A DNA stretch of 64,000 nt from Terriglobia bacterium. GTDB lineage: Bacteria > Acidobacteriota > Terriglobia > UBA7540. The notes below the pieces were generated by a model. That model was not told the origin of the DNA and did no database searches. It saw only the letters and a program-made list of their open reading frames with translations. Positions 2,536 to 14,968 of the stretch are shown here, piece by piece (position 1 is the stretch's first letter; the number at the start of each line of letters is the position of its first letter). The position numbers and the translations under genes were made by a program. The stretch lies in NCBI GenBank assembly GCA_046706005.1, contig JBJKPU010000132.1, forward strand, positions 1-64,000, in the 5' to 3' direction.

Positions 2536-4521
2536 TCAATACGGCCTTGCCCCTTGCGTGACCAGCGGCCAATCGTCGGTGCGGAAAGGTCCGGCGGGCA
2601 ATCCCGCGCCGTTGAACAGATTTGCTGCGGGATTCGATTGCCAGGCGTAGCGCACCTGCGTGGGATCGGGAACCGACGGCGATGAAACGATAATCGTCTT
2701 GCCCTTGATGCGCGCCTCGGCCCAATACCATTTGCGGTCCTTGCCTGCAATCTGGAAACCCTCCAGCTTTCCGCCTTTGGCCACCAGGCCGCCGTTCGTG
2801 TGCGAAAAGCGCAACCGGATGTCGTGCCGCCGCCGCTTAACCGATGCCAGCGTCGGTCCCGAATACGCCACGTGCCTGCCGTAATGTTTTGCCAGCGCGC
2901 AATCGGCCAGGCGGTCGCCCACCGGCTTTTTCACCTTGGAATGAATATTGTTGGGGTCGCCCGTATCAATCGTGATGGCGAGGCACGTGTTGGGAGTTTC
3001 CGCGGCCGCCACCGCCATGGACTCGCGCACGTCCGCCCATCCGTCATCGGTGGGCGTCGAACTGCGCTGCCCGAAGCGCGGCAGACTGACGATGTAGAAG
3101 GGAAAATCGCCCTGGTCGAAAAGCTGCCGCCAGTTGGCAATCATGGCGGGAAGAATTTTGCGGTACTGGTAGCCGCGAGGAGAGTTCTGCTCGCCCTGAT
3201 ACCAGATCGCTCCGGTAATGGACATCGGCGCGACGGGCGTGAGCATTCCGTTATAAAGAACGTCCGGCTGGACGGGCCAGTTTTCAAAGCGCAGCGGCAG
3301 CGGATGCGGCGGCCGGGCGTCAACGCTCACTTTGCCTTTCCACTCGCCCGCCAGCGGAATGCTGGTGTGGTTGCCCAGTTCAAGATGCAGGACGCTGGCC
3401 TTATCCAGAAATCCGCCGTGCGGCTCGGTCTTGAAGATGCGAATGGCGATTACGTTCCGACCGGGTTTAAGCATTCCGGGCCGCATAAAATAGACGCGCG
3501 GATTTTCCACCCAGGCGCTTCCGCCTGCGAACGTTCCGTTCACCCACACGCTGTCCATGCGCTGAATTTCACCGAGGAAGATCATGGCGCGCCCCGGCGG
3601 CAGGGGATTGGGCAGAGTGATTTCTTTTCGAAACCAGACCAGAGCCGGCGCCGTCGGCACGCCGAGCGCCGCGAATCCGCCCGGAACGGGAACTTCTTTC
3701 CATGAGGAATCGTCGTAATCCGGTGCGTCCCAATGCTGCTTCAACCCGATGTCATATTTGTCGTACCAGCCCATGATGTAATTCCCGTAAGGCGGCAAAC
3801 CGTCCGCTTCTTCCTGTGCAACCGCTGCCAGCGGAACGTCAAAATCCTTCAGCGGTCGCAAGGCCGCGGCGCTGGCCCACGATTCCGCGGGCGTACCGCC
3901 CACCGCATCCACTACCAGTCCAATGGGCACGTGAAGTTGCTGCCGCAGCTTGACGCCAAAATAGTAGGCGACGGCCGAGAGCCAGTTCGCCGACTGCGGC
4001 GTAATGGCCTGCCATTTTCCACCCACAACGTTCACCGGCTTGTAAGCGGGGTGTCCGAAAACACTGAAGTAGCGAATCTGCGGAAAATTCGAATCCTTCG
4101 CCACCTGCGCACCGTTTTCGGTGAAGCGCAGCGGCAATTCCATATTCGATTGCCCTCCGCAAAGCCAAACATCGCCCACCAGCACATCGTGGAGTTCGAC
4201 GGTCTGCGGCCCCGTGATATTCATCGTGTAGGGCCCGCCCGTTTTGGGCGGCTGGATTTTCACCTGCCAGCGGCCGTCCTTGTCCGCGACTCCCGAAGCG
4301 CTGTGGCCGGCGATTTCCACCTGAACCGTTTTGCCGGGCTCCGTCCAGCCCCAGATCGCATCCGGCTTGCCGCGCTGCAGAACCATGTTGTCACCGAACA
4401 TCGTGCTGACAAACGGATGTTGATTCGTGGGCATGGCGGGGCGGGGAAACTGCGCCGGCAGCGTGCCGGCCGCCGTGAGCATTGCCAGTGTCAGTACCGC
4501 AAGAGTGCGTTTGAATTTCAT
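2536..4521 (-). CDS. sialate O-acetylesterase-like SGNH/carbohydrate esterase, secreted
   Basis: GGQSNM motif (LCGGQSNMELP) with family-wide similarity. Signal peptide MKFKRTLAVLTLAMLTAAGTLPAQ. ATG at 4521 preceded by AGGAGG. The longer table ORF to 4680 lacks an RBS. Confidence 0.85.
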   Translation of the reverse strand: MKFKRTLAVLTLAMLTAAGTLPAQFPRPAMPTNQHPFVSTMFGDNMVLQRGKPDAIWGWTEPGKTVQVEIAGHSASGVADKDGRWQVKIQPPKTGGPYTMNITGPQTVELHDVLVGDVWLCGGQSNMELPLRFTENGAQVAKDSNFPQIRYFSVFGHPAYKPVNVVGGKWQAITPQSANWLSAVAYYFGVKLRQQLHVPIGLVVDAVGGTPAESWASAAALRPLKDFDVPLAAVAQEEADGLPPYGNYIMGWYDKYDIGLKQHWDAPDYDDSSWKEVPVPGGFAALGVPTAPALVWFRKEITLPNPLPPGRAMIFLGEIQRMDSVWVNGTFAGGSAWVENPRVYFMRPGMLKPGRNVIAIRIFKTEPHGGFLDKASVLHLELGNHTSIPLAGEWKGKVSVDARPPHPLPLRFENWPVQPDVLYNGMLTPVAPMSITGAIWYQGEQNSPRGYQYRKILPAMIANWRQLFDQGDFPFYIVSLPRFGQRSSTPTDDGWADVRESMAVAAAETPNTCLAITIDTGDPNNIHSKVKKPVGDRLADCALAKHYGRHVAYSGPTLASVKRRRHDIRLRFSHTNGGLVAKGGKLEGFQIAGKDRKWYWAEARIKGKTIIVSSPSVPDPTQVRYAWQSNPAANLFNGAGLPAGPFRTDDWPLVTQGARPY

Positions 4522-4625
4522 GAAAACCAGCCTCCTGTTTTCGGACGATTGTAGTGCGACCTTCGCCGCACCCACATCATATAACGACGCGGCAATCAGG
4601 ACGGCGGTTTCGAAACAAATTTGAG

Positions 4626-4653
4626 TTGCAATCCGAATCCGGATTGGTATAAT
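4626..4653 (+). promoter_or_regulatory. sigma70-like promoter TTGCAA-N16-TATAAT with a 10-bp palindrome AATCCGGATT in the spacer; predicted leaderless transcript for the AIM24 gene
   Basis: TTGCAA at 4626-4631 and TATAAT at 4648-4653. The ATG at 4662 is 8 nt downstream of the -10, with no SD. The perfect palindrome is at 4636-4645. Confidence 0.45.
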
Positions 4654-4661
4654 CGCGCGCC

Positions 4662-5498
4662 ATGAGTGACACTCCTGCAAACGCCGCCCAGGGATCTTTT
4701 GAGCGAATTCAGTGCCAGTGGTGCGGGGGCATGAATGAAAAATCGGCGCTCGCCTGCCGCGCCTGCGGTGCGCCGCTCGACATCCGCAATCTGGTCAGCG
4801 AATCCGGCTGGCGCGAAGCGCCCCGCATTCGCGACATGACCGAAATTCATTTCAGCTCGAGCACCTGTCAGGTGGAGGGCGAAATCGTTCCCGCCGCCGA
4901 AATCAATCTCGGCCCGGGGGACTCCATCTTCTTCGAGCACCACGTCATGCTGTGGAAGGAAGAGGCCGTGGGCATGTCGGTGATGAATCTTTCCGGCGGC
5001 ATGAAGCGCGCCTTTGCCGGAATGCCGTTCATCATCAGCGTGGCCACCGGTCCGGGCCGCATTGCTTTCTCGCGCGACGCCACGGGCGAGCTGGTTGTGC
5101 TTCCGCTTCATCAGGGCATGGAGTTGGATGTCCGCGAGCACGCCTTTCTGCTCTCCTCGCACCAGATTTCCTATTCGTTCGTCCGCGTCAAAGGTCTCTC
5201 GAACATCCTGTTCGGCGGGCAGGGAATGTACATGGACCGCTTCGTCACTTCGGGCGAATCCGGCCTGCTGATTCTTCACGGTTACGGCAATGTCTTCGAG
5301 CGTCGCCTGAAGGCTGGGGAAAGCATCATGCTGGAACCGGGCGCGTTTCTTTACAAGGATTCCTCGGTCACGATGAATGTGGAATTCCAGAAAATCGGCA
5401 CTGGCCTTTTCGGTGGCAGAAACATGAGCCTGGCCAAAATGACCGGGCCGGGGCGAATCGGCATTCAGTCCATGTACGTTCATCACCACACCGAGTAA
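4662..5498 (+). CDS. AIM24/DUF124 (TIGR00266-like) family protein with N-terminal zinc ribbon
   Basis: N-terminal CxxC...CxxC (CQWCGG...CRACGAP). C-terminal pattern typical of AIM24 (GESGLLILHGYGNVFERRLKAGESIMLEPGAFL). Good coding composition. Confidence 0.8.
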   Translation: MSDTPANAAQGSFERIQCQWCGGMNEKSALACRACGAPLDIRNLVSESGWREAPRIRDMTEIHFSSSTCQVEGEIVPAAEINLGPGDSIFFEHHVMLWKEEAVGMSVMNLSGGMKRAFAGMPFIISVATGPGRIAFSRDATGELVVLPLHQGMELDVREHAFLLSSHQISYSFVRVKGLSNILFGGQGMYMDRFVTSGESGLLILHGYGNVFERRLKAGESIMLEPGAFLYKDSSVTMNVEFQKIGTGLFGGRNMSLAKMTGPGRIGIQSMYVHHHTE

Positions 5499-5504
5499 CC
5501 AACA

Positions 5505-6572
5505 ATGTTTTGCACAACCTGTGGCACGCCACTCGCGGAAACTCTGAACTTCTGCACCAAATGCGGAAAGCCGGTCGCGCACGCTGCCGCTCCGGCTGCA
5601 GTTCCGTCGGCAGCGCCGCCCGCGGCTTCGATGCCATCTCCGGTTGCGGCAGTCTCCGTGCCGCCGCCCGCGCCATCAACGCCTTCACCGGCTTCAGGCG
5701 GCAGTCGTTGCGACTGGTGCGGGGCGCAGATAGATGCTTCTTCCGCGGCCTGTCCGAGTTGCGGCGCCGCACTCAAACATGCGCCCGCATCCACGGAAAG
5801 CGGCTGGATCGAATTGCCCGGCCGCAAGGACATGACCAAGCTCCAGATCGGCAATTCCAGTTGCCAGATCGAAGGCAAGTTCGTTCCCGCTGCCGACATG
5901 AATCTTGCCGCCGGCGACAGCGTTTATTTTGCGCATCACGTCCTGCTCTGGAAGGACCCGCAGGTGAACATCACCACGATGTCGCTGAAGGGCGCCTGGA
6001 AGCGCCTCTTTGGCGGGCTGCCGCTCATCATGACGCAGGCGGAAGGGCCGGGCCACATTGCTTTTTCACAGGATAATCCCGGCGAGCTGATTCCCATTCC
6101 GCTCCGCGCCGGCCAGATGGTGGATGTCCGCGAGCACATGCTGCTGGTGGCTACTTCCAGCGTTGCTTACGACTGGTTCCAGACGGGCATCTGGTACACC
6201 ACGCGGGAAGGAAATGATAGCGAGACTCATTATCCCGTCGGCTACTGCATGGATCGTTTTTCAGCCGGCTCGACGCACGGCCTGCTGATTCTTCACGCGG
6301 GCGGCAACATCTTCACGCGGAATCTCAGTCCCGGCCAGACCATTCTGATCAAGCCCACGGCGTTGGTCTTCAAGGATCCGACAGTCCAGATGCAATTGCA
6401 CTTTGAACACCCCGGCGGCTTGTTCGCCATGTGGCGTCCCTGGAGCAATCGCTATATCTGGCTTCGGCTCACCGGACCCGGCCGGGTGGCCGTACAATCG
6501 GTTTTTGAGCCTATTGAAGGTGAGGCGCGGAGTCTCACGAGCTGGTCCAGCGCCACGCGCCGGCAATGGTGA
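5505..6572 (+). CDS. AIM24/DUF124 family paralog with two N-terminal zinc ribbons and a Pro/Ala-rich linker
   Basis: CTTCG...CTKCG and CDWCG...CPSCG ribbons, then an AIM24-like core (GSTHGLLILHAGGNIFTRNLSPGQTILIKPTALVF). Starts 6 nt after the previous stop. Confidence 0.8.
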   Translation: MFCTTCGTPLAETLNFCTKCGKPVAHAAAPAAVPSAAPPAASMPSPVAAVSVPPPAPSTPSPASGGSRCDWCGAQIDASSAACPSCGAALKHAPASTESGWIELPGRKDMTKLQIGNSSCQIEGKFVPAADMNLAAGDSVYFAHHVLLWKDPQVNITTMSLKGAWKRLFGGLPLIMTQAEGPGHIAFSQDNPGELIPIPLRAGQMVDVREHMLLVATSSVAYDWFQTGIWYTTREGNDSETHYPVGYCMDRFSAGSTHGLLILHAGGNIFTRNLSPGQTILIKPTALVFKDPTVQMQLHFEHPGGLFAMWRPWSNRYIWLRLTGPGRVAVQSVFEPIEGEARSLTSWSSATRRQW

Positions 6573-7567
6573 TTACTGCTGCGTGGTGCCGCACTCCGGA
6601 CAGAACTTCGCCGGTTTCGGAATTGATTTCCCGCAATTCAGGCAGAACTTAGTCGCGCCCGCCGCCGGTGCCGCGGCCGGAGGCGCTGCGGCCGGAGCCG
6701 GTTGCGCGGGTTGTGCGGCCTGCGGCTGCATGGCGCCCATCATCTGCTGCCCCATGGCCATGCCGGCTCCCAGACCCATGCCCAGCCCGGCGCCGCCGCC
6801 CGGATTCGCGGCCGCCACGGGCATCGACTGCGCCACCTGGAACTGCGTGTAGCGATTCATATCGCCGATCATGTTCATCCCGATGCGCTGGTCCAGCAGC
6901 TTCTGCAGTTCTTCCGGCAGCGAGACGTTTTCCACCACGAACTTTTCCAGCGAGAGTCCAAGGTCCGCGAATCCCGGTTTCAGCGCCGTCAGCATCGCTT
7001 CTCCCAGCTTGATCTGGCTGCCCGCCATATCGAGAAAATTGATGTGCGCGCCGGCAAACGTGTCCGTCATCCGCCCCACGATCGTATCGCGCAGTTGGCC
7101 TTCCAGGTCGCTCACCGAATAAGTCTCGCGCGAGCCGCTCACTTGGCGGTAAAAGGTCTTAGGATCGGAAATTTTGTAAGCGTAAATTCCATAGGCGCGC
7201 ATGCGCACGGCGCCGAATTCGGCGTCGCGAATCGTGATAGGCGTAGCCGTTCCCCATTTCTGGTCAATCCGCAGCCGCGAGGAGTAGAAATAAACGTCCG
7301 ACTTGAACGGTGACTTGAAAAGCTTGTTCCAGTTCAGCAGGTCGGTCAGGACGGGCAGCGTCTCCGTGCTGAGCTTATACAGCCCCGGGCTGAATGCGTC
7401 GGCAATGCGGCCCTCGTTCACGAAAACCGCCCACTGCGAGTCGCGCACGGTCAGCCGCGCGCCGGTCATGATTTCCTGGTCCTGTGTCGGAAATCGCCAG
7501 GCCAGCACCGAATCGCCCGTCTCCATCCACTGGATGACCTCGATGAACTGCTTGGTAAAGAAACCCA
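6573..7567 (-). CDS. SPFH/band-7 (stomatin-prohibitin family) protein with C-terminal zinc ribbon (COG4260-like)
   Basis: SPFH-like core. Gly/Ala/Pro/Gln-rich linker, then FCLNCG...CPECG. ATG at 7567 preceded by GGAGG. The table ORF extends to 7733 without RBS support. Confidence 0.8.
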
Positions 7568-7846
7568 TGGCTACCTCCAGATTTCCCCGAGTATACACCC
7601 GAAGCAGGGCCGAATGTCCACGCCGAAAATCCGCGGCATCGCGGCTCGCTTCGCGGAGCTCCAAAGTGAACGTTCCGGCCGGCCCCGCGCCAACCCGTGC
7701 AGATTGGCGCATCCTGATGACGTAAATCCACAATTATTGTAATATTCTTGTCCGAACGAGCCGAGGCGGTCCGCCTCAGGTCCGAACCCCATTCCGTCAA
7801 AACGGGCGGCGCCATCGCGCGCGAGTGAAAGGTTGGTGCCCTGGCG

Positions 7847-9961
7847 ATGAATGCCAAAACCAGAATCCGCATGGGGACGGCTGCGATTTCGCTTCTGGTA
7901 GCCGCCGTGGCGTTTGCCTGCTTCTCGGCGATTCGCGAATTGACTCGCGCCAACGACCTCGTCGCTCACACCAACCGGGTTCTTGATGAAATCGATGCCA
8001 TTCCTTCCTACACCAAGGATGTGATCTCCGGCGCGCGGGGATATGTCATCACCGGCAACCGGATTTATCTTCAAGTTTACAACGACGCGGGCTCCCAGAT
8101 CGGATCCCACCTGAACTCGCTGTTCGACCTCACGGCTGACAGCCCGGTTCAGCGGAAGCACGCCGCCGAGCTTCGCGCGCTGGTTCAGGACGAACTCGAT
8201 ATTCAGGCGAAGATCATTCAGGCCCGGGCGGCGGGCGGCAAGCAGCTGCAGCAGGCTGCTTTTCTGGAAAGCGGCAAGCAGACCATGGACCGCATCCGCA
8301 GCCTCAGCGCTGAAATGAAGTTGGAGGAAAACCGTGTCCTGACGGACAACATGGACGCGGCCGACCTCCGCACGCGGCAACTGGAGATTACGATCTTCGC
8401 CCTCTGCCTTCTGGCCGTGCTGATGGTGGGCGGCACCTACGCCATCTGGGTGCACGACGGCCGCCTGCATGAGCAGGCTTCGCAGGAGCTGCGCGAGAGC
8501 GAGGAAAAGATCCGGCTGCTTCTCAACTCCGCTGCGGAAGCTATTTACAGCATCGATTTGCAGGGCAAATGCACCAGCTGCAATCCCGCCTGCCTTCACA
8601 TGCTGGGTTATCAGGATGAGCAGCAACTGCTGGGGCACGACATCCACAAGCTGGTTCATCACACCATGGCGAATGGCATGCCGTTGCCGGGCCGCGAATG
8701 CCGCATCCTGCGCGCCCTGCCATTGGAGCGCGGCGTCCACTCCGATGACGAAGTTTTCTGGCGCGCCGACGGCTCCAGCTTTCCCGTCGAATACTGGTCC
8801 TATCCCATGCGGCGCGACGGCAAAATAACCGGCGCCGTGATCACTTTTTTTGACATCACGCGCCGCAAGCAGACTGATGACGCGCTGGTGGAGGCGAACC
8901 AGAGGCTGGAAGCTTCCGTCCGCGACCTGGAGCGCGCCGGCGACGAAATTTCCCGCCTCAAGGAAATGGGCAGCCTGTTGCAAAGCTGTTTGACGCTTGA
9001 GGAAGCCTATCAGGTGGTCGAGCGGAGCGTGCGCGGCCTTTTCCCGCAGGAGTCGGGCGGCGTTTTCGTCATCGCTTCCTCGCGCGACATCGTGGAAGCG
9101 CAAGCCGTGTGGGGGCCGGGGCTCAGCGGCGAGAATGTTTTCAGCCGCGACGATTGCTGGGCGCTGCGCAGCGGCCAGCCCCATCGCGTGGAGGGCGGAC
9201 AATCGGGTCTGGTCTGCCGTCACGTCTCGTACTCGGATGGAATGTCCTACCTTTGCCTGCCCATGGTGGCGCAGGGCGAGGCGCTGGGTGTTCTGCACTT
9301 GCAGTTTCACGCCCCCGCGGGCTCCGAGATGGCGCTCGATGGAGACCACTTCCTGGGCCACCGGGAGGGCCTGGCCTCAACCGTGGCCGAGCAAATCGCT
9401 CTGGCCCTGGCCAATCTCCGGCTGCGCGACGCTCTGCGCGCCCAGTCCATTCGCGATCCGCTCACCGGCCTCTTCAACCGCCGTTTTATGGAGGAATCAC
9501 TCGACCGGGAACTGAAGCGTTCGGCGCGCAGCGGCCGCCCCGTGGGCGTGATCCTGCTCGATGTGGATCACTTCAAGCGCTACAACGATACCTACGGCCA
9601 CGAGGCCGGCGACGCCGTGCTGCGCGAGCTTGGCAACTTCATCCGCGCCCTGGTTCGCGGCGAAGATGTTGCCTGCCGTTATGGCGGCGAAGAGTTCATC
9701 CTTCTTATGCCCGAAGCCACGGTTGAAATCGCCGCCGCCCGCGCCGAGCAGTTGCGCCAGGGCGTGAAGCGCATTCAGGTCAGCGCTCATGGCCAGCCGC
9801 TGGGCGCCATCAGCATTTCGATCGGCGTGGCCGCCTATCCCGTCCACGGCGTGCTTTCCGACGTCCTCCTGCGCTCCGCCGATAACGCGCTCTATGAGGC
9901 CAAAAGTCTCGGCCGCGACCGCGTCGTCATTTCCACCGCCATCCCCGAAACCACCGCTTGA
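7847..9961 (+). CDS. membrane sensor diguanylate cyclase: CHASE3-TM-PAS-GAF-GGDEF
   Basis: N-terminal TM, CHASE3-like periplasmic region, second TM, PAS (CNPACLHMLGYQDEQQLLGHD), GAF, and a GGDEF domain with intact RYGGEEF and DxLT motifs. Confidence 0.85.
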   Translation: MNAKTRIRMGTAAISLLVAAVAFACFSAIRELTRANDLVAHTNRVLDEIDAIPSYTKDVISGARGYVITGNRIYLQVYNDAGSQIGSHLNSLFDLTADSPVQRKHAAELRALVQDELDIQAKIIQARAAGGKQLQQAAFLESGKQTMDRIRSLSAEMKLEENRVLTDNMDAADLRTRQLEITIFALCLLAVLMVGGTYAIWVHDGRLHEQASQELRESEEKIRLLLNSAAEAIYSIDLQGKCTSCNPACLHMLGYQDEQQLLGHDIHKLVHHTMANGMPLPGRECRILRALPLERGVHSDDEVFWRADGSSFPVEYWSYPMRRDGKITGAVITFFDITRRKQTDDALVEANQRLEASVRDLERAGDEISRLKEMGSLLQSCLTLEEAYQVVERSVRGLFPQESGGVFVIASSRDIVEAQAVWGPGLSGENVFSRDDCWALRSGQPHRVEGGQSGLVCRHVSYSDGMSYLCLPMVAQGEALGVLHLQFHAPAGSEMALDGDHFLGHREGLASTVAEQIALALANLRLRDALRAQSIRDPLTGLFNRRFMEESLDRELKRSARSGRPVGVILLDVDHFKRYNDTYGHEAGDAVLRELGNFIRALVRGEDVACRYGGEEFILLMPEATVEIAAARAEQLRQGVKRIQVSAHGQPLGAISISIGVAAYPVHGVLSDVLLRSADNALYEAKSLGRDRVVISTAIPETTA

Positions 9962-10060
9962 TGCCCACCGGATGCGCAACGGCTTCCGAGGGCTTTGCCC
10001 ATCGGCTGTGGCCTGCGTAAAAGTCATGAGTCTTTTTCGCGCGGTTCGTCGTAGATCAGA

Positions 10061-10669
10061 TTGGAGCGTACAATGGACGGCGCGATTCACCTCTTCGCAA
10101 TCACGATGGAACCGGAAACCAGAGCAGTGGCTCGCGGCTTGCGCCGGCGCGATCCGGACTTGTTGGACGCCCTGATCTCGCATTACGAATATCGCCTCTA
10201 CCGATACCTGCTTTACCTGACCGGCAACGAGGATGCCGCCCGCGATCTCTTTCAGGAAACCTGGTTGCGCGTGCTGGCCCGCGGCCATCAGTACGACGGA
10301 GTGTCCCGTTTTGAGCCCTGGCTCTTCTCGATTGCGCGTCACCTGGTGATTGACGCAAGCCGCCGCAGAAAGATGGAAAGTCTGGATGAAATGCTCGACG
10401 CGTCTTCGGGAGCGGTTCAGGAGCCGCGCGCGCCGGAGGAAGCTTCGCCGCTCGCTGAATATTCGAACCGCGAGCTCGCAACCAGGCTGGGAGGAATTCT
10501 GCAACGTTTGTCGGCCGTTTACCGGGAAGTTCTGCTGCTGAGGTTTCAGGAAGACATGACGTTAAAAGAAATCGCCGGCGTCCTTCGGGTCCCGATTGCA
10601 ACCGTGAAGTCCCGGCTGTATCGCGGGCTGAGCGCCGCCCGGGATTTCATCGAGGAACAACAGTCATGA
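10061..10669 (+). CDS. ECF (sigma-70 family) RNA polymerase sigma factor
   Basis: Region 2 (DLFQETWLRVL) and region 4 HTH (LKEIAGVLRVPIATVKSRLYRG). Confidence 0.85.
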   Translation: MERTMDGAIHLFAITMEPETRAVARGLRRRDPDLLDALISHYEYRLYRYLLYLTGNEDAARDLFQETWLRVLARGHQYDGVSRFEPWLFSIARHLVIDASRRRKMESLDEMLDASSGAVQEPRAPEEASPLAEYSNRELATRLGGILQRLSAVYREVLLLRFQEDMTLKEIAGVLRVPIATVKSRLYRGLSAARDFIEEQQS

Positions 10670-11163
10670 AGAACCCAGATGATTCGCACGAACGCGCGCG
10701 GCGGCTGATCGATGCGGAACGCGTCGAAGGTCTTGCTCGCGAGGAAAGCCGCTGGCTTCAGGATCACCTTGCTGCTTGTGAAGACTGTGCCCGCCGGGCC
10801 GCGGGAACGGATGCGGCGATTCGCGCGCTGCGATCGATTTCCGTGGCCTTGCCGCCGGGACTTTCGGCCGTGACCAGGCAGCGAGTGCGCGTCCGGGCCC
10901 GAGAGCTGGCGCAACATCGAACCAAGAATCTGGTGTTGGCCGCCGCCTGCGCGCTCTCCTGGCTGGCCGGAGTGGCGAGCGCGCCTCTGGTGTGGAAGCT
11001 TTGCGCGTGGATTGGATCGCAGCTTGACCTTCCGCGCATCGTGTGGCAACTGGCGTTCTTTTTCTGGTGGGCTGTGCCTGCCGCGGCGGTCAGCGTTGTG
11101 ATTTTGCTGGCGAAGTCACGCAGCAATTACGGACTGAATTTTCCAGATTCCGACGGGTTCTGA
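10666..11163 (+). CDS. putative anti-sigma factor (zf-HC2-like, single TM)
   Basis: 4-bp overlap with the sigma gene (ATGA). HLAACEDCARR motif plus a TM segment. Confidence 0.6.
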   Translation: MKNPDDSHERARRLIDAERVEGLAREESRWLQDHLAACEDCARRAAGTDAAIRALRSISVALPPGLSAVTRQRVRVRARELAQHRTKNLVLAAACALSWLAGVASAPLVWKLCAWIGSQLDLPRIVWQLAFFFWWAVPAAAVSVVILLAKSRSNYGLNFPDSDGF

Positions 11164-11165
11164 AG

Positions 11166-11816
11166 ATGAAGCCGGCGGAAAGTAAGTCAGCAGAAGGTGA
11201 GGGTATGAAGATGGCGAACCAGGAAGGTTTTGCGGCAAGAATGAAAGAAAACCGGCGATTGCGCGCCGGTGAAAAGAAAACTTTCCGGAGCGAGCTGCGC
11301 GTTATTCCGGGCTGGCTGAGGAGTCTGGTTGCGGGCCTCTATCTGATTGCGCTCGCCTTCGTGGGGTATCTGGTCATTTCCAGACCGGGTGACGTGAAGA
11401 TGACCCCGGATCTGCTGGTCAACCAACCCATGATGTTAAAGCTGCTCGTCATGTTCGCCATCGTGACGGTGGTCGCCTTCTTTCTCGGAGGCTTGGTGTT
11501 GCTGTTCGGTTACGTCGGAGGCGACGCGAAGCGCCGCGGAATGATGGCGTGGCTTTGGGTGCTGGTGGCGATCTTCGTACCGTACCTGATCGGCGTGATT
11601 CTCTACTTTGTAGTGCGCGAGCCGCTGCCTTCGGAATGCCCCCAGTGCGGAACCACGGTGGCGGCGCAGTTCAATTTCTGCCCGAGTTGCAAGTTCAACC
11701 TGCGGCCCAACTGTCCGCAATGCCGGCTCGCGATTCGTCCCGGAGACACTTATTGCCCGCATTGCGGCCTCTCGCTTCCCCAGGACGCTCCCGCTCAGGC
11801 CGGCGCGAATGCGTAG
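11166..11816 (+). CDS. membrane protein with PLD-nuclease N-terminal-like (PLDc_N) segment and C-terminal double zinc ribbon
   Basis: GGDAKRRGMMAWLWVLVAIFVPYLIGVILYFVVR resembles PF13396. C-terminus CPQCG...CPSC...CPQC...CPHCG. The in-frame upstream part of table ORF 11043.. overlaps the anti-sigma gene and is rejected. Confidence 0.55.
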   Translation: MKPAESKSAEGEGMKMANQEGFAARMKENRRLRAGEKKTFRSELRVIPGWLRSLVAGLYLIALAFVGYLVISRPGDVKMTPDLLVNQPMMLKLLVMFAIVTVVAFFLGGLVLLFGYVGGDAKRRGMMAWLWVLVAIFVPYLIGVILYFVVREPLPSECPQCGTTVAAQFNFCPSCKFNLRPNCPQCRLAIRPGDTYCPHCGLSLPQDAPAQAGANA

Positions 11817-11867
11817 CGCACACCGCGGTTTCCGTGGTCACCGGCATCTTGTTAATGGGCTCGCGGC

Positions 11868-12038
11868 CTAACCTCTGAGGTTCAGGGGCGGGATGCTGTA
11901 TTTTCGCGCCACGCGCCGCAGGTAATCCTGCTGCTTGCCGTGCTTGAGCACGAACCATGCGGCGAAGATCGGCAGGAAAAGACCCGCGAAGAGGGTTACG
12001 ACCATAGCGATAATCTTGATGAGGGCGACTTTTTCCAT
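11868..12038 (-). CDS. small single-TM protein (56 aa), hypothetical
   Basis: MEKVALIKIIAMVVTLFAGLFLPIFAAWFVLKHGKQQDYLRRVARKYSIPPLNLRG. Strong GC3 codon bias. Lies 54 nt downstream of ilvE on the same strand. No clear SD. Below the ORF-table length cutoff. Confidence 0.3.
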   Translation of the reverse strand: MEKVALIKIIAMVVTLFAGLFLPIFAAWFVLKHGKQQDYLRRVARKYSIPPLNLRG

Positions 12039-12092
12039 AGGAGATTTATACGCCCGCCTCAGGCGCGAGTCAACCTTCCGGGAACGGCGGCC

Positions 12093-13037
12093 CTAGCTTC
12101 GGGCCGATACGGCCTGGTTGCAGAAGCTGAGCCATCCGTGCTTGTCCGGGGCTTCGCCCTGCACGATGGCGAGGAACCGTTCCTGCAGCTTGCGAGTGAT
12201 GGGACCCGGCTTTCCTTTACCGACGGTGATGCGGTCAACGGAACGAACGGGAGTGATTTCCGCCGCCGTGCCGGTGAAGAAGACTTCATCGGCAATGTAG
12301 AGGACTTCGCGGGGCAACGGCTCCTGAATGACCTCGTAGCCGAGCTCGCCGGCGAGCGTGATGACGGAGGCGCGGGTGATTCCGGGCAGAACCGAGGAAG
12401 CCAGCGAAGGCGTGAACAATTTGCCGTCGCGCACGATGAAGATGTTTTCACCGCTGCCTTCGCTGATGGAGCCCGCCGCGTCCAGCGCAATGCCTTCCAC
12501 GTAGCCGTTGGTGACGGCTTCCATCTTGATGAGCTGGGCATTCATGTAATTTGAAGCCGCTTTGGCCATGGCCGGCAAAGTGTTCGGCGCAATGCGTCCC
12601 CAGGAGGAAACGCAGACGTCCACGCCCTGCTTCAGGGCTTCATCGCCCAGATACTTGCCCCACTTCCAGGCCAGCAGATAAACCTCAATCGGATTCGTAA
12701 GAGGATTCACGCCCAGTCCGCCGTAGCCTCTGAAAACCAGCGGGCGAATGTAGCAGGACTTGACGCTGTTCGTGCGCACCAGTTCGATCATCGCCTGCTG
12801 CAACTGGTCAACGGTAAATTCGACGTCCATGCGGTAAATTTTGGCGGAGTTTACCAGCCGCTCGGCGTGATCCTTCAGACGGAAAATGGCAGGCCCCTGT
12901 GCCGTTTCGTAGCACCGGATGCCTTCGAAAAGGCAGGAGGCGTAACTCACCACGTGCGAAGCAACGTGGATCGTCGCCTGATTCCATGGGATGAATTTTC
13001 CGTTATGCCAAACGTGCTCATAGTAATCGAGTGCCAT
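12093..13037 (-). CDS. ilvE: branched-chain amino acid aminotransferase
   Basis: Full-length class IV aminotransferase similarity (ASCLFEGIRCY... TGTAAEITPV). GGAGAG RBS. Confidence 0.9.
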   Translation of the reverse strand: MALDYYEHVWHNGKFIPWNQATIHVASHVVSYASCLFEGIRCYETAQGPAIFRLKDHAERLVNSAKIYRMDVEFTVDQLQQAMIELVRTNSVKSCYIRPLVFRGYGGLGVNPLTNPIEVYLLAWKWGKYLGDEALKQGVDVCVSSWGRIAPNTLPAMAKAASNYMNAQLIKMEAVTNGYVEGIALDAAGSISEGSGENIFIVRDGKLFTPSLASSVLPGITRASVITLAGELGYEVIQEPLPREVLYIADEVFFTGTAAEITPVRSVDRITVGKGKPGPITRKLQERFLAIVQGEAPDKHGWLSFCNQAVSARS

Positions 13038-13379
13038 GGTGAACTCTCCGGTTGTTTCCAGCCTTTACTCCGCGCGCAATAACCGACCCTTCGCACAGAT
13101 GTGGCTTTGAAAATGCTCGAAATGATTATAGCACGAAGGGCTCGCGCCCTTTGCCCGGCTGTGGGGAAATGCGGCCGCCGCAATCATCCGGCGGGACGAG
13201 TCTGATGTGAGCCGCGGTTCGGGGCTGGTGCAATCGCGAGACGGACTTTTTCCGCGGCGCGAAGGGGGGTGATCGGGATGCCGGAAACCGGCAAAACTTC
13301 TTATGGCTGTAACCATATTTTTCTATTTGCGTCTATAGAAGTGTAGTGGTAATGTCGCCACTACGAAGGAGAGGCGCTG

Positions 13380-13808
13380 TTGCACATGGCCTTTATTCGC
13401 AAGCGCGGGAACTCTTATTACCTGGTTCACTGTGTCCGGGAGGACGGCCGGGTGCGGCAGATTCACCTGGCTCGCCTCGGACGGCGCCCGCGCATCAGTG
13501 ACGAAGTGATCCAGGGGGTCACTTCCAGGCATCCCTTTGTGCGCGTTGATTGGCGCGAGCTGCGCGAGAAGTCCTCGCGCGAACTGGTGAAGCCTTTTGA
13601 GAACGACTCACAGTATTTGCAGGATCTGGTGGGGACGGTTCGGGGTCTCCATCTGGACATTGCGGATTTGCATTTTCCGGTTCTGCAGATGACGAAGGAC
13701 CGCGAGTTGCTGGCGCAGTTGACGGCCAGCCTGCGGCTCCTGCGCTCGACACTGGACGTGAAACTCAATCAGCTTCGTAAAGGGAAGACGCATCCTTATG
13801 CGAATTAG
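13380..13808 (+). CDS. hypothetical protein; N-terminus resembles a phage-integrase arm-type/AP2-like DNA-binding motif
   Basis: MAFIRKRGNSYYLVHCVREDGRVRQIHLARLG resembles integrase N-terminal arm domains (xRKRGxSWxxxY). No recombinase catalytic region. AGGAGAGG RBS. Palindrome GTAGTGG-N8-CCACTAC at 13343-13364 just upstream. Confidence 0.5.
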   Translation: MHMAFIRKRGNSYYLVHCVREDGRVRQIHLARLGRRPRISDEVIQGVTSRHPFVRVDWRELREKSSRELVKPFENDSQYLQDLVGTVRGLHLDIADLHFPVLQMTKDRELLAQLTASLRLLRSTLDVKLNQLRKGKTHPYAN

Positions 13809-13825
13809 GGTGGGGAGACAATCAC

Positions 13826-14968
13826 ATGAGCACAGCACAGACAGTTCTTGATCCAAGCCTGCAAAGCCCTGAAGTCCAGGACTTCGAAAAGGCTTTGCTG
13901 GAACGCGTGGTCGGGCAGGACCGCGCCGTTCGGCGCCTGGCGCGCGTCTACCAGGTTTACACGGCTGGACTCTCGACTCCCGGCCGGCCCATCGTGAACC
14001 TGCTGTTTCTCGGCCCGACCGGTTCCGGCAAGACCCGGCTGGTGGAAGCCGTGGCGGAAGTGCTGTTCGGCGACGCCCGCGCCGTGCTCAAGATCGATTG
14101 CGCCGAATTCCAGCACAGCCATGAAATCGCCAAGCTGATCGGCTCGCCTCCGGGCTATCTGGGCCACCGTGAAACGCAACCGCTGATTACCCAGGAAGTG
14201 CTGGAAGGGCACTTTACCGAGAAGCTCAAAATCGCCCTGGTGCTTTTCGACGAAATCGAAAAGGCGTCGGATTCGCTCTGGCAGCTTTTGCTGGGGATTC
14301 TGGACAAAGCGACGCTGACCCTGGGTGACAATCGCCGCGTGGATTTTTCCCGCGCCATGATTTTCCTGACGTCCAACATCGGCTCGCATGAGGTTTCCCG
14401 CCTGATGGAAGGCGGTCTGGGTTTCTCCGCCACCAGTCGTCAGGTCGAAGGTGAAATGGATCAGAAGATTTACCGCGTCGCCGCGGAAGGCGCGCGCCGC
14501 AAATTTTCTCCGGAGTTCATGAACCGCATCGACAAGGTCATCGTGTTCCGGTCGCTGCAGCGCGATCACTTGGAGAAGATTCTGGATATCGAGCTCGGCG
14601 TGGTTCAGAGGCGGATCATGTCGGCTGCTGCGGACAATCAGTTTGTGTTCAAGTGCACGACCGCGGCGCGGGACTTCCTGATTGCCGAAGGTACGGATCC
14701 AAAATACGGCGCGCGCCACCTGAAACGCGCCATCGAGCGGCATCTGGTTTTTCCGCTTTCCAATCTGGTTGCGACGCGGCAGGTGCGCCTGGGCGATTTC
14801 ATTACCGTGGACGCGCCGCCGGAAAGTCCGAAGCTGGTCTTTGTGCGCGAAGAGCAGGGGGCCATCGTCGGCTGCGTGGAAGCGCCGCCGGCCGAGCCCG
14901 CTCCGCCGCCGGCAACGCCCGCGCATAAGACGGCTCGAGCGCTCGCCAAACGCGCCAGCCGGGATTGA
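13826..14968 (+). CDS. standalone AAA+ ATPase of the ClpA/ClpB D2 (AAA_2 + ClpB_D2-small) type
   Basis: Walker A GPTGSGKT, sensor/arginine-finger region, Walker B LVLFDEIEKA, and a ClpB-D2-small-like C-terminus (RVDFSRAMIFLTSNIGS...GARHLKRAIERHL). No N-domain and no D1. Confidence 0.8.
   Translation: MSTAQTVLDPSLQSPEVQDFEKALLERVVGQDRAVRRLARVYQVYTAGLSTPGRPIVNLLFLGPTGSGKTRLVEAVAEVLFGDARAVLKIDCAEFQHSHEIAKLIGSPPGYLGHRETQPLITQEVLEGHFTEKLKIALVLFDEIEKASDSLWQLLLGILDKATLTLGDNRRVDFSRAMIFLTSNIGSHEVSRLMEGGLGFSATSRQVEGEMDQKIYRVAAEGARRKFSPEFMNRIDKVIVFRSLQRDHLEKILDIELGVVQRRIMSAAADNQFVFKCTTAARDFLIAEGTDPKYGARHLKRAIERHLVFPLSNLVATRQVRLGDFITVDAPPESPKLVFVREEQGAIVGCVEAPPAEPAPPPATPAHKTARALAKRASRD

Follow-up and report, generated by a model that had tools for sequence, protein, structure and literature searches.

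What do the AIM24 (DUF124) proteins of bacteria do, and does an SPFH protein encoded beside some of them belong to the same system? This question is raised by a locus at positions 4662 to 7568 of a 64-kb stretch of DNA from a Terriglobia bacterium (contig JBJKPU010000132.1; hereafter the window, with coordinates counted from its first letter), in which two adjoining genes for AIM24 proteins with zinc ribbons are met tail to tail by a gene for an SPFH (band-7) protein that also carries a zinc ribbon. AIM24/DUF124 proteins are widespread, from bacteria to mitochondria and the plant endoplasmic reticulum (ER), and two crystal structures of the family are known. Bacterial AIM24 proteins have no assigned function, and bacterial and archaeal members are listed as uncharacterised (PMC6393860; PMC5822837), which agrees with what a preliminary description of this locus had noted. 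The same description proposed a new AIM24-SPFH functional module. Here, we report that the association does recur in two phyla, but that its conserved core is the AIM24 pair rather than the trio: the pair is ancient and present in several phyla, and SPFH is a recurrent but optional neighbour of it. No publication on an AIM24-SPFH link was found in a literature search, although records may exist in automated neighbourhood databases, and AIM24 is not mentioned in a survey of phage shock protein and band-7 systems (PMC11237479).

The first gene (AIM24-1, type 1; 4662..5498, plus strand, 278 amino acids (aa)) and the second (AIM24-2, type 2; 5505..6572, plus strand, 355 aa) are separated by exactly 6 nucleotides (nt; TAA CCAACA ATG), and both products match the AIM24 family PF01987 (AIM24-1, E=1e-35, 123.5 bits; AIM24-2, E=2e-23, 83.7 bits; cut-off 25.7). 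AIM24-1 begins with one zinc ribbon of the form CxxC-x10-CxxC (aa 18-35, nt 4713-4766, plus strand), which gives a weak Zn_Ribbon_1 match under the Pfam cut-off (E=0.0098), and its AIM24 domain (aa 70-271, nt 4869-5474, plus strand) is preceded by a conserved SGWREAPR linker. AIM24-2 carries two ribbons, a distal one (aa 3-20, nt 5511-5564, plus strand) and, after a Pro/Ala-rich linker, a proximal one (aa 69-86, nt 5709-5762, plus strand), with a Zn_Ribbon_1 match over the cut-off (E=3e-11), followed by the AIM24 domain (aa 121-332, nt 5865-6500, plus strand). Open reading frames (ORFs), Pfam matches and cysteine motifs therefore agree with the first account of two adjoining AIM24 genes, 6 nt apart, with one ribbon and then two. 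The domain assignment is also borne out by the fold: AIM24-1 matches the two solved AIM24 structures (PDB 1yox, PA3696; 1pg6, SpyM3_0169) by sequence, and an AlphaFold2 (AF2) model of AIM24-2 (core pLDDT 70-90) retrieves the same two with Foldseek (1pg6, E=3e-11; 1yox, E=2e-9; target TM-score 0.67-0.71). No other fold was found below E=0.1 in this search, which provided no functional lead. Since both proteins fall under the cut-off of the hypothetical equivalog TIGR00266 (96.6 bits; AIM24-1, 26.5 bits; AIM24-2, no match), they belong to a separate AIM24 subfamily with an N-terminal zinc ribbon and an SGW-x-E-x-P linker, whose members occur as a fixed pair of paralogues.

In the source assembly, AIM24-2 appears to have been called as a 252-aa protein (P0001; identity of 100% across 71% of the query), which begins near residue 104 of the product described here and thereby loses both zinc ribbons; no exact database record was found for the 355-aa product or for P0001. 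However, almost every one of the 120 homologues listed spans the whole of AIM24-2, and the cysteines are invariant in those that align. A shortened gene call of this kind would conceal the ribbon architecture from database-level surveys. Some type-2 homologues (among P0256, P0271 and P0296) have a C-terminal GYF_2 domain and a CxxC-TM-CxxC tail, where TM denotes a transmembrane segment, and one AIM24 homologue has N-terminal hydrophobic (TM) segments, which suggests membrane tethering in some lineages. Ten long AIM24 homologues that were checked for domain fusions contained only such GYF_2 and TM extensions and no fusion to SPFH. A defence or phage origin of the trio was considered and rejected: PADLOC returned 0 matches for the three proteins, and PHROGs matches were confined to their ribbons of ~25 residues.

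How far does the AIM24 pair extend? One genome per species was scanned with AIM24-2, which revealed relatives in 274 genomes; the best 80 loci, all from Bryobacterales, were analysed. The names of close homologues likewise assign the organism of the window to the Bryobacteraceae/Bryobacterales (phylum Acidobacteriota). In 79 of the 80 loci, the gene directly upstream of AIM24-2 encodes an orthologue of AIM24-1 (79-88% identical). In addition, all nine type-2 homologues that were examined from a range of lineages (Bryobacterales, Streptosporangiaceae, other Actinomycetota, Dormibacteraeota, Tepidisphaeraceae of the Planctomycetota, and further lineages) have a type-1 gene directly upstream. The intergenic gaps of the pair are 0-60 nt, and the order of type 1 followed by type 2 is fixed. 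AIM24-1 shares 67% identity with the type-1 protein of Streptosporangiaceae and AIM24-2 shares 50% with the actinobacterial type 2, whereas the two paralogues of the window share only 41%. That orthologues of different phyla resemble each other more than the paralogues do (~40%) argues for an old duplication with a fixed gene order; the duplication would thus be older than the split between these lineages, or else the pair has moved as a unit. In several lineages outside Bryobacterales, a thioredoxin gene lies directly 3′ (0-14 nt) of the pair (L095 7920-8258, L181 6895-7242 and L182 2064-2411; loci are given by L numbers), in L095 followed by ArsC and PAP2 genes, and thioredoxin may be a second recurrent partner of the AIM24 pair.

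The third gene of the locus (6573..7568, minus strand, 331 aa) encodes a YdjI-family SPFH protein. Its start codon is at 7568; the end coordinate given at first, 7567, is one base short and falls in a frame full of stop codons. The product matches PF13421 (Band_7_1) almost completely (E=2e-72, 243.7 bits, cut-off 24, model positions 2-210 of 211; SPFH domain at aa 24-232, nt 6873-7499, minus strand), and ends in a zinc ribbon (aa 309-326, nt 6591-6644, minus strand; Zn_Ribbon_1 at aa 308-328, E=2e-6). The convergent orientation and the ribbon after a low-complexity linker, as initially described, are both in accord with these matches. The stretch before the ribbon is first Gly/Ala/Met/Gln-rich and then Pro/Ala-rich, and what had been called a linker opens with a glycine-rich motif (GGGAGLGMGLGAGMAMGQQMMGAM; aa 257-279, nt 6732-6800, minus strand) that is nearly invariant in 18 homologues, with the consensus GGxAGxGxGLGAGMxMxQQMM. 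Comparable motifs are present in the SPFH proteins of Gemmatirosa, Ralstonia and actinobacteria, and the motif may serve as a membrane-interacting or oligomerisation element. The maximum Kyte-Doolittle hydropathy over 19 residues is 0.79, and in none of the three proteins of the locus is there a hydrophobic run of sufficient length for a TM helix. The SPFH protein, which lacks a TM segment and has a low-complexity stretch plus a C-terminal ribbon after the SPFH domain, thus has the architecture of YdjI; it is a soluble protein of that type and not a membrane-anchored one of the classical flotillin or HflK type. A PDB sequence search with this protein found no relative, and its AF2 model has a mean pLDDT of 49.8, too low for the model to be of use. 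An orthologue on the Ralstonia solanacearum megaplasmid (L088 7986-9020) has a SHOCT-like end (LAKLKELLDKGLITQADFDAGK) and no zinc ribbon, which indicates that this family's C-terminal module is interchangeable.

Is the SPFH gene more than an accidental neighbour? In Bryobacterales, it lies within 8 kb of the AIM24 pair in 22 of the 80 loci. Seventeen of these are convergent like the window, 15 with directly abutting genes (gaps of 3-38 nt) and two with inserts of 1.3-2.2 kb, and the remaining five are co-directional, with SPFH 0.4-4.8 kb downstream; when the window is counted together with the 15 abutting loci, the tail-to-tail gap ranges from 0 to 38 nt over 16 cases. In a neighbour-joining tree of concatenated AIM24 proteins from 77 Bryobacterales loci, the convergent arrangement occupies the window's clade with few losses, and a basal clade of ~25 loci has no SPFH nearby. 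The arrangement is kept down to ~58% AIM24-2 identity. When all window ORFs were compared with the 80 loci, none apart from the pair and SPFH was found in more than one locus. In one of the losses, a DDE_3 transposase gene (L001/L031 9118-10104) takes the place of the convergent SPFH gene of sister genomes.

A second and more rigid arrangement was found in Actinomycetota. Contigs of Streptosporangiaceae encode SPFH, AIM24 type 1 and AIM24 type 2 in this order and direction, with gaps of 72 and 9 nt, and the SPFH protein (384 aa, PF13421 with a double ribbon) shares only 24-26% identity with that of the window. By using this actinobacterial SPFH as a single-protein query against metagenome contigs, 80 loci with 70-97% identity were obtained. 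AIM24 type 1 follows SPFH in all 46 actinobacterial loci with at least 1 kb of downstream sequence, and both AIM24 genes follow it in all 38 loci with at least 1.9 kb. Clustered at 90% SPFH identity, the 40 complete trios form 26 groups, with pairwise identities down to 67%; only the closest few loci have flanking genes in common. Directly after one such trio lies a third AIM24 gene (L128 8974-9840), which shares 55% identity with type 2. The AIM24-SPFH neighbourhood that had been noticed in the window is therefore conserved beyond its genome, in 22 of 80 Bryobacterales loci and in 38 of 38 sufficiently long loci of an actinobacterial clade. By a rough estimate that assumes one PF13421 gene per genome of ~5000 genes, the chance of adjacency within three genes is ~0.1% per lineage. 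Two independent arrangements in two phyla, which involve two distant SPFH lineages, would accordingly lie well beyond chance expectation.

What such a linkage may mean can be approached through the published relatives of the SPFH protein. The combination of a band-7 domain with a C-terminal zinc ribbon is the description given of YdjI by Ravi et al. 2024 (PMC11237479). In Bacillus subtilis, YdjI is a soluble protein with a stretch of low complexity and a zinc finger; its membrane foci require the membrane proteins YdjG and YdjH, and it binds PspA and is needed for PspA recruitment and foci under alkali shock (Scholz et al. 2021, PMC8581546). Its published role in the pspA-ydjGHI system is thus that of a membrane-proximal adaptor in envelope stress. 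The window SPFH protein, for which PF13421 membership was established here, has this architecture as published for YdjI, and in both cases SPFH is encoded beside other zinc-ribbon proteins: YdjG, which carries two zinc ribbons (PMC11237479), in B. subtilis, and AIM24 here. By analogy, we propose that the core of the system is a soluble, paralogous pair of zinc-ribbon AIM24 proteins, co-transcribed and probably translationally coupled, in which type 1 and type 2 would act as a hetero-oligomer, and that in some lineages a soluble SPFH oligomer of YdjI type would serve as the scaffold of this complex at the membrane's cytoplasmic side. The complex would have a role in membrane or envelope homeostasis, parallel to that of YdjI with YdjG/YdjH and PspA, and the AIM24 heteromer would be one of several alternative SPFH partner sets, the others being YdjG/YdjH plus PspA and a DUF4178/DUF350/spermine-synthase-like operon. 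We give this reading as a whole an even chance. The GYF_2 and TM extensions of some homologues and the presence of eukaryotic AIM24 proteins in membrane complexes are hints of a membrane location.

Several observations weigh against the proposed AIM24-SPFH complex. In the window, the AIM24 pair and SPFH are convergent and hence belong to separate transcription units rather than being co-transcribed. Of the 77 Bryobacterales loci in the tree, 55 lack SPFH beside the pair. Among the type-2 homologues examined outside Bryobacterales, it adjoins the pair in only one of eight, and no SPFH gene was found beside the pair in Dormibacteraeota, Tepidisphaeraceae, several other Actinomycetota and further lineages. 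Conversely, a Nocardia plasmid has an SPFH gene of the window type by itself. The plasmids of Ca. Chlorohelix, Nostoc, Caballeronia and Mycolicibacterium (L082-L085) carry solitary AIM24 genes among partition, recombinase and transposase genes; plasmid AIM24 proteins, which include a match on Burkholderia sp. M701 NC_022995.1, are 44-46% identical to AIM24-1, and neither a second AIM24 gene nor SPFH was found in the four regions inspected. Across the plasmid collection, the trio was found nowhere: AIM24 relatives are solitary, and SPFH relatives stand in DUF4178/polyamine operons or alone. The likeness to pspA-ydjGHI has its limits as well, as genes for PspA, a YdjG-like protein (NTF2-like plus TM) and a YdjH-like protein (TPM) are absent from 2536-14968, where two soluble AIM24 proteins are encoded instead; in addition, the genes of the window are convergent, and the B. 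subtilis operon has no AIM24 gene.

It may therefore be asked whether the pair and SPFH are functionally independent, with an adjacency that is merely inherited synteny in one Bryobacterales subclade and an actinobacterial operon that is coincidental or reflects different biology. Separate transcripts, AIM24 pairs that mostly lack an SPFH neighbour in other lineages, and the concentration of the arrangement in one part of the AIM24 tree, with several losses and in one case a transposase in place of SPFH, would all be expected under this explanation. However, the flanking SASA esterase and GGDEF genes of the window recur in 0 of the 80 loci, compared with 21-22 for SPFH; in L179/L180, the same trio is bounded by RuvAB at one end and by an RNA methyltransferase at the opposite end, quite unlike in the window. 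A very divergent SPFH lineage (24% identity) stands in a strict operon with orthologous AIM24 genes, without exception in the 38 actinobacterial loci, and the estimated chance of adjacency is low. We consider functional independence unlikely.

The other explanation starts from the co-directional Bryobacterales loci. In four of the five (L039, L042, L059 and L079), SPFH, 0.4-4.8 kb downstream of the AIM24 pair, heads an operon that continues with two DUF4178 genes and a gene for a multi-TM spermine-synthase-like protein; in the fifth (L068), the co-directional SPFH gene is 2.2 kb downstream, and neither DUF4178 nor spermine synthase was matched there. The same DUF4178/polyamine operon is present on Gemmatirosa and Ralstonia megaplasmids, and PspA-free band-7 variants of polyamine/DUF4178/DUF350 operons have already been described by Ravi et al. 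2024 (PMC11237479). The SPFH proteins of these operons belong to the same PF13421 lineage as that of the window (55-68% identity), and over the SPFH domain the window protein is 68% identical to that of the L079 operon. Hence, the real partners of SPFH might be DUF4178/DUF350/spermine-synthase-like proteins, with the AIM24 pair placed just by chance upstream of their operon in an ancestor and an inversion having stranded SPFH tail to tail with AIM24-2 in the window's clade. However, the DUF4178a, DUF4178b and spermine-synthase proteins of L079 found no match by tblastn in the 64-kb window, so the other operon genes are missing there, and AIM24 is in turn outside the published operon. The stranded arrangement has kept gaps of 0-38 nt down to ~58% AIM24-2 identity, and no explanation is offered for the SPFH-AIM24-AIM24 operon of actinobacteria, from which DUF4178 is absent. 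This origin appears decidedly improbable to us.

If the AIM24-SPFH complex is retained as the preferred reading, YdjI-type SPFH proteins would have at least three alternative partner sets, each with ribbon-bearing proteins (the two DUF4178 proteins each start with CxxC...CxxC), and the AIM24 pair would be the third. Operons in which an SPFH scaffold is encoded beside a dedicated partner are a known kind, exemplified by stomatin-NfeD, HflK/HflC-FtsH and flotillin-YqiJ/YuaF. In these classical cases, the SPFH protein is membrane-anchored and the partners are membrane proteins or proteases, whereas the trio of the window has no TM segment; what is new here is AIM24 as a partner family. AIM24 genes have also been placed in ter (tellurite-resistance) clusters, according to the statement in PMC5822837 that cites Anantharaman et al. 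2012, but there are no ter genes near the window locus.

Does the zinc ribbon that all three proteins share add to the argument? The ribbons themselves are well supported, with two conserved CxxC knuckles in each ribbon of the three proteins and a metal binding that is predicted. The four ribbon cysteines of AIM24-1 do not vary among 79 orthologues from Bryobacterales and 71 from actinobacteria, nor do those of AIM24-2 among 81 and 48, respectively, wherever aligned; all eight cysteines of AIM24-2 are invariant in the homologue alignment, and the four of SPFH are invariant in the 22 loci. In the 64-kb window, CxxC...CxxC was found in four ORFs of at least 100 aa, i.e., the three proteins of the cluster and one membrane protein (11043-11816), so that the concern that such ribbons might be ubiquitous on unrelated proteins in this lineage did not materialise. 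However, each ribbon is a trait of its own family. The AIM24-proximal ribbon and the SGW-x-E-x-P linker are present on both paralogues in every lineage examined (Bryobacterales, Streptosporangiaceae, other Actinomycetota, Dormibacteraeota, Tepidisphaeraceae and further lineages), with SPFH nearby or not, and the ribbon is also seen in many representatives of clusters at 50% identity; the one ribbon confined to Bryobacterales is the distal one of AIM24-2. The C-terminal ribbon of SPFH, for its part, is a published trait of the B. subtilis YdjI family (PMC8581546; PMC11237479). The shared decoration, which at first had suggested a common partner, is therefore no argument for one by itself, and counts as a weak one for partnership.

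Eukaryotic AIM24 proteins act as accessory or stabilising subunits of membrane complexes: yeast Aim24 is associated with MICOS, and plant PAWH1/2 belong to the HRD1 complex of ER-associated degradation (PMC3975624; PMC6677890; PMC10203443). In plant AIM24-B proteins and the bacterial homologues related to them, TM helices are present at the C terminus (PMC10203443). A more far-reaching idea, which we offer tentatively and regard as somewhat doubtful, is that the AIM24 heteromer serves soluble YdjI-type SPFH scaffolds across phyla as a client or adaptor and is a bacterial counterpart of eukaryotic AIM24 in MICOS and HRD1, with the ribbons of AIM24, YdjG, DUF4178 and SPFH proteins as a common docking or membrane-targeting element. 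If true, it would provide the first molecular function for a bacterial AIM24 protein. As YdjI-type SPFH proteins have been tied to the PspA membrane-repair response only recently, the AIM24 pair would add a third partner set to the SPFH/PspA-type systems of membrane homeostasis. The function rests on guilt by association; the new element is a zinc-ribbon AIM24 subfamily that forms a fixed paralogue pair across phyla and is repeatedly and independently tied to a zinc-ribbon SPFH protein, which makes the link a concrete and testable lead to the role of bacterial AIM24.

With regard to expression, a promoter-like element (TTGCAA-16 nt-TGgTATAAT; 4626..4653, plus strand) is the sole sigma-70-like match in 4300-8000, and may drive the AIM24 pair. 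Its -10 box TATAAT (4648-4653) ends 8 nt before the ATG of AIM24-1. TATAAT is found before the AIM24-1 start in 14 related loci (L001-L007, L009, L010, L012, L017, L024, L027 and L031), at a distance of 8 nt in most, 9 nt in L024 and 7 nt in L027, and a near-consensus -10 box lies 5-9 nt before the start in seven further loci. Other Bryobacterales clades have GGAGG at -5 to -8 in place of TATAAT. Since the box is kept amid upstream DNA that is otherwise unrelated among the TATAAT-bearing loci, this phylogenetic footprint suggests that the AIM24 mRNA of the window's clade is leaderless or nearly so.

At the other end of the pair, the stop codons of AIM24-2 (6570-6572) and SPFH (6573-6575) are contiguous, with a 0-nt spacer, and a hairpin (6550..6589, assigned to no strand) spans both. 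With 0-38 nt between the genes in the 16 directly convergent cases, there is no room for a terminator, and the junction could in principle be a regulatory device, in which convergent transcription or a 3′ antisense effect makes the expression of the pair and of SPFH mutually exclusive. However, the stability of the hairpin is at the level of shuffled sequence (z = -0.3), no Rfam family matches the junction RNA, and a terminator scan found no more sites than in shuffles, for which reason a structured RNA or terminator was rejected and an antisense role is not supported. Furthermore, the co-directional actinobacterial genes point to co-expression rather than exclusion, and a regulatory junction of this kind is very improbable.

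The genes around the locus (2536-14968) encode a SASA esterase, a CHASE3-PAS-GAF-GGDEF protein, an extracytoplasmic function (ECF) sigma factor, a protein without Pfam match, a membrane protein with PLDc_N and double zinc ribbon (DZR) domains, an aminotransferase and an AAA_2 ATPase. The CHASE3-PAS-GAF-GGDEF protein, a large diguanylate cyclase (7847-9961), is divergent from the SPFH gene and has a common upstream region of 278 nt with it; this gene was found beside the trio in no related locus. The ECF sigma gene (10061-10669) is located 2.5 kb from the trio, and an ECF sigma gene also lies 3′ of the AIM24 pair in Dormibacteraeota (L092/L093); a link to the trio was set aside, because this gene class is too common to serve as evidence. 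The 165-aa protein without Pfam match (10666-11163) may be an anti-sigma factor, and the gene for the PLDc_N/double zinc ribbon membrane protein is the one at 11043-11816.

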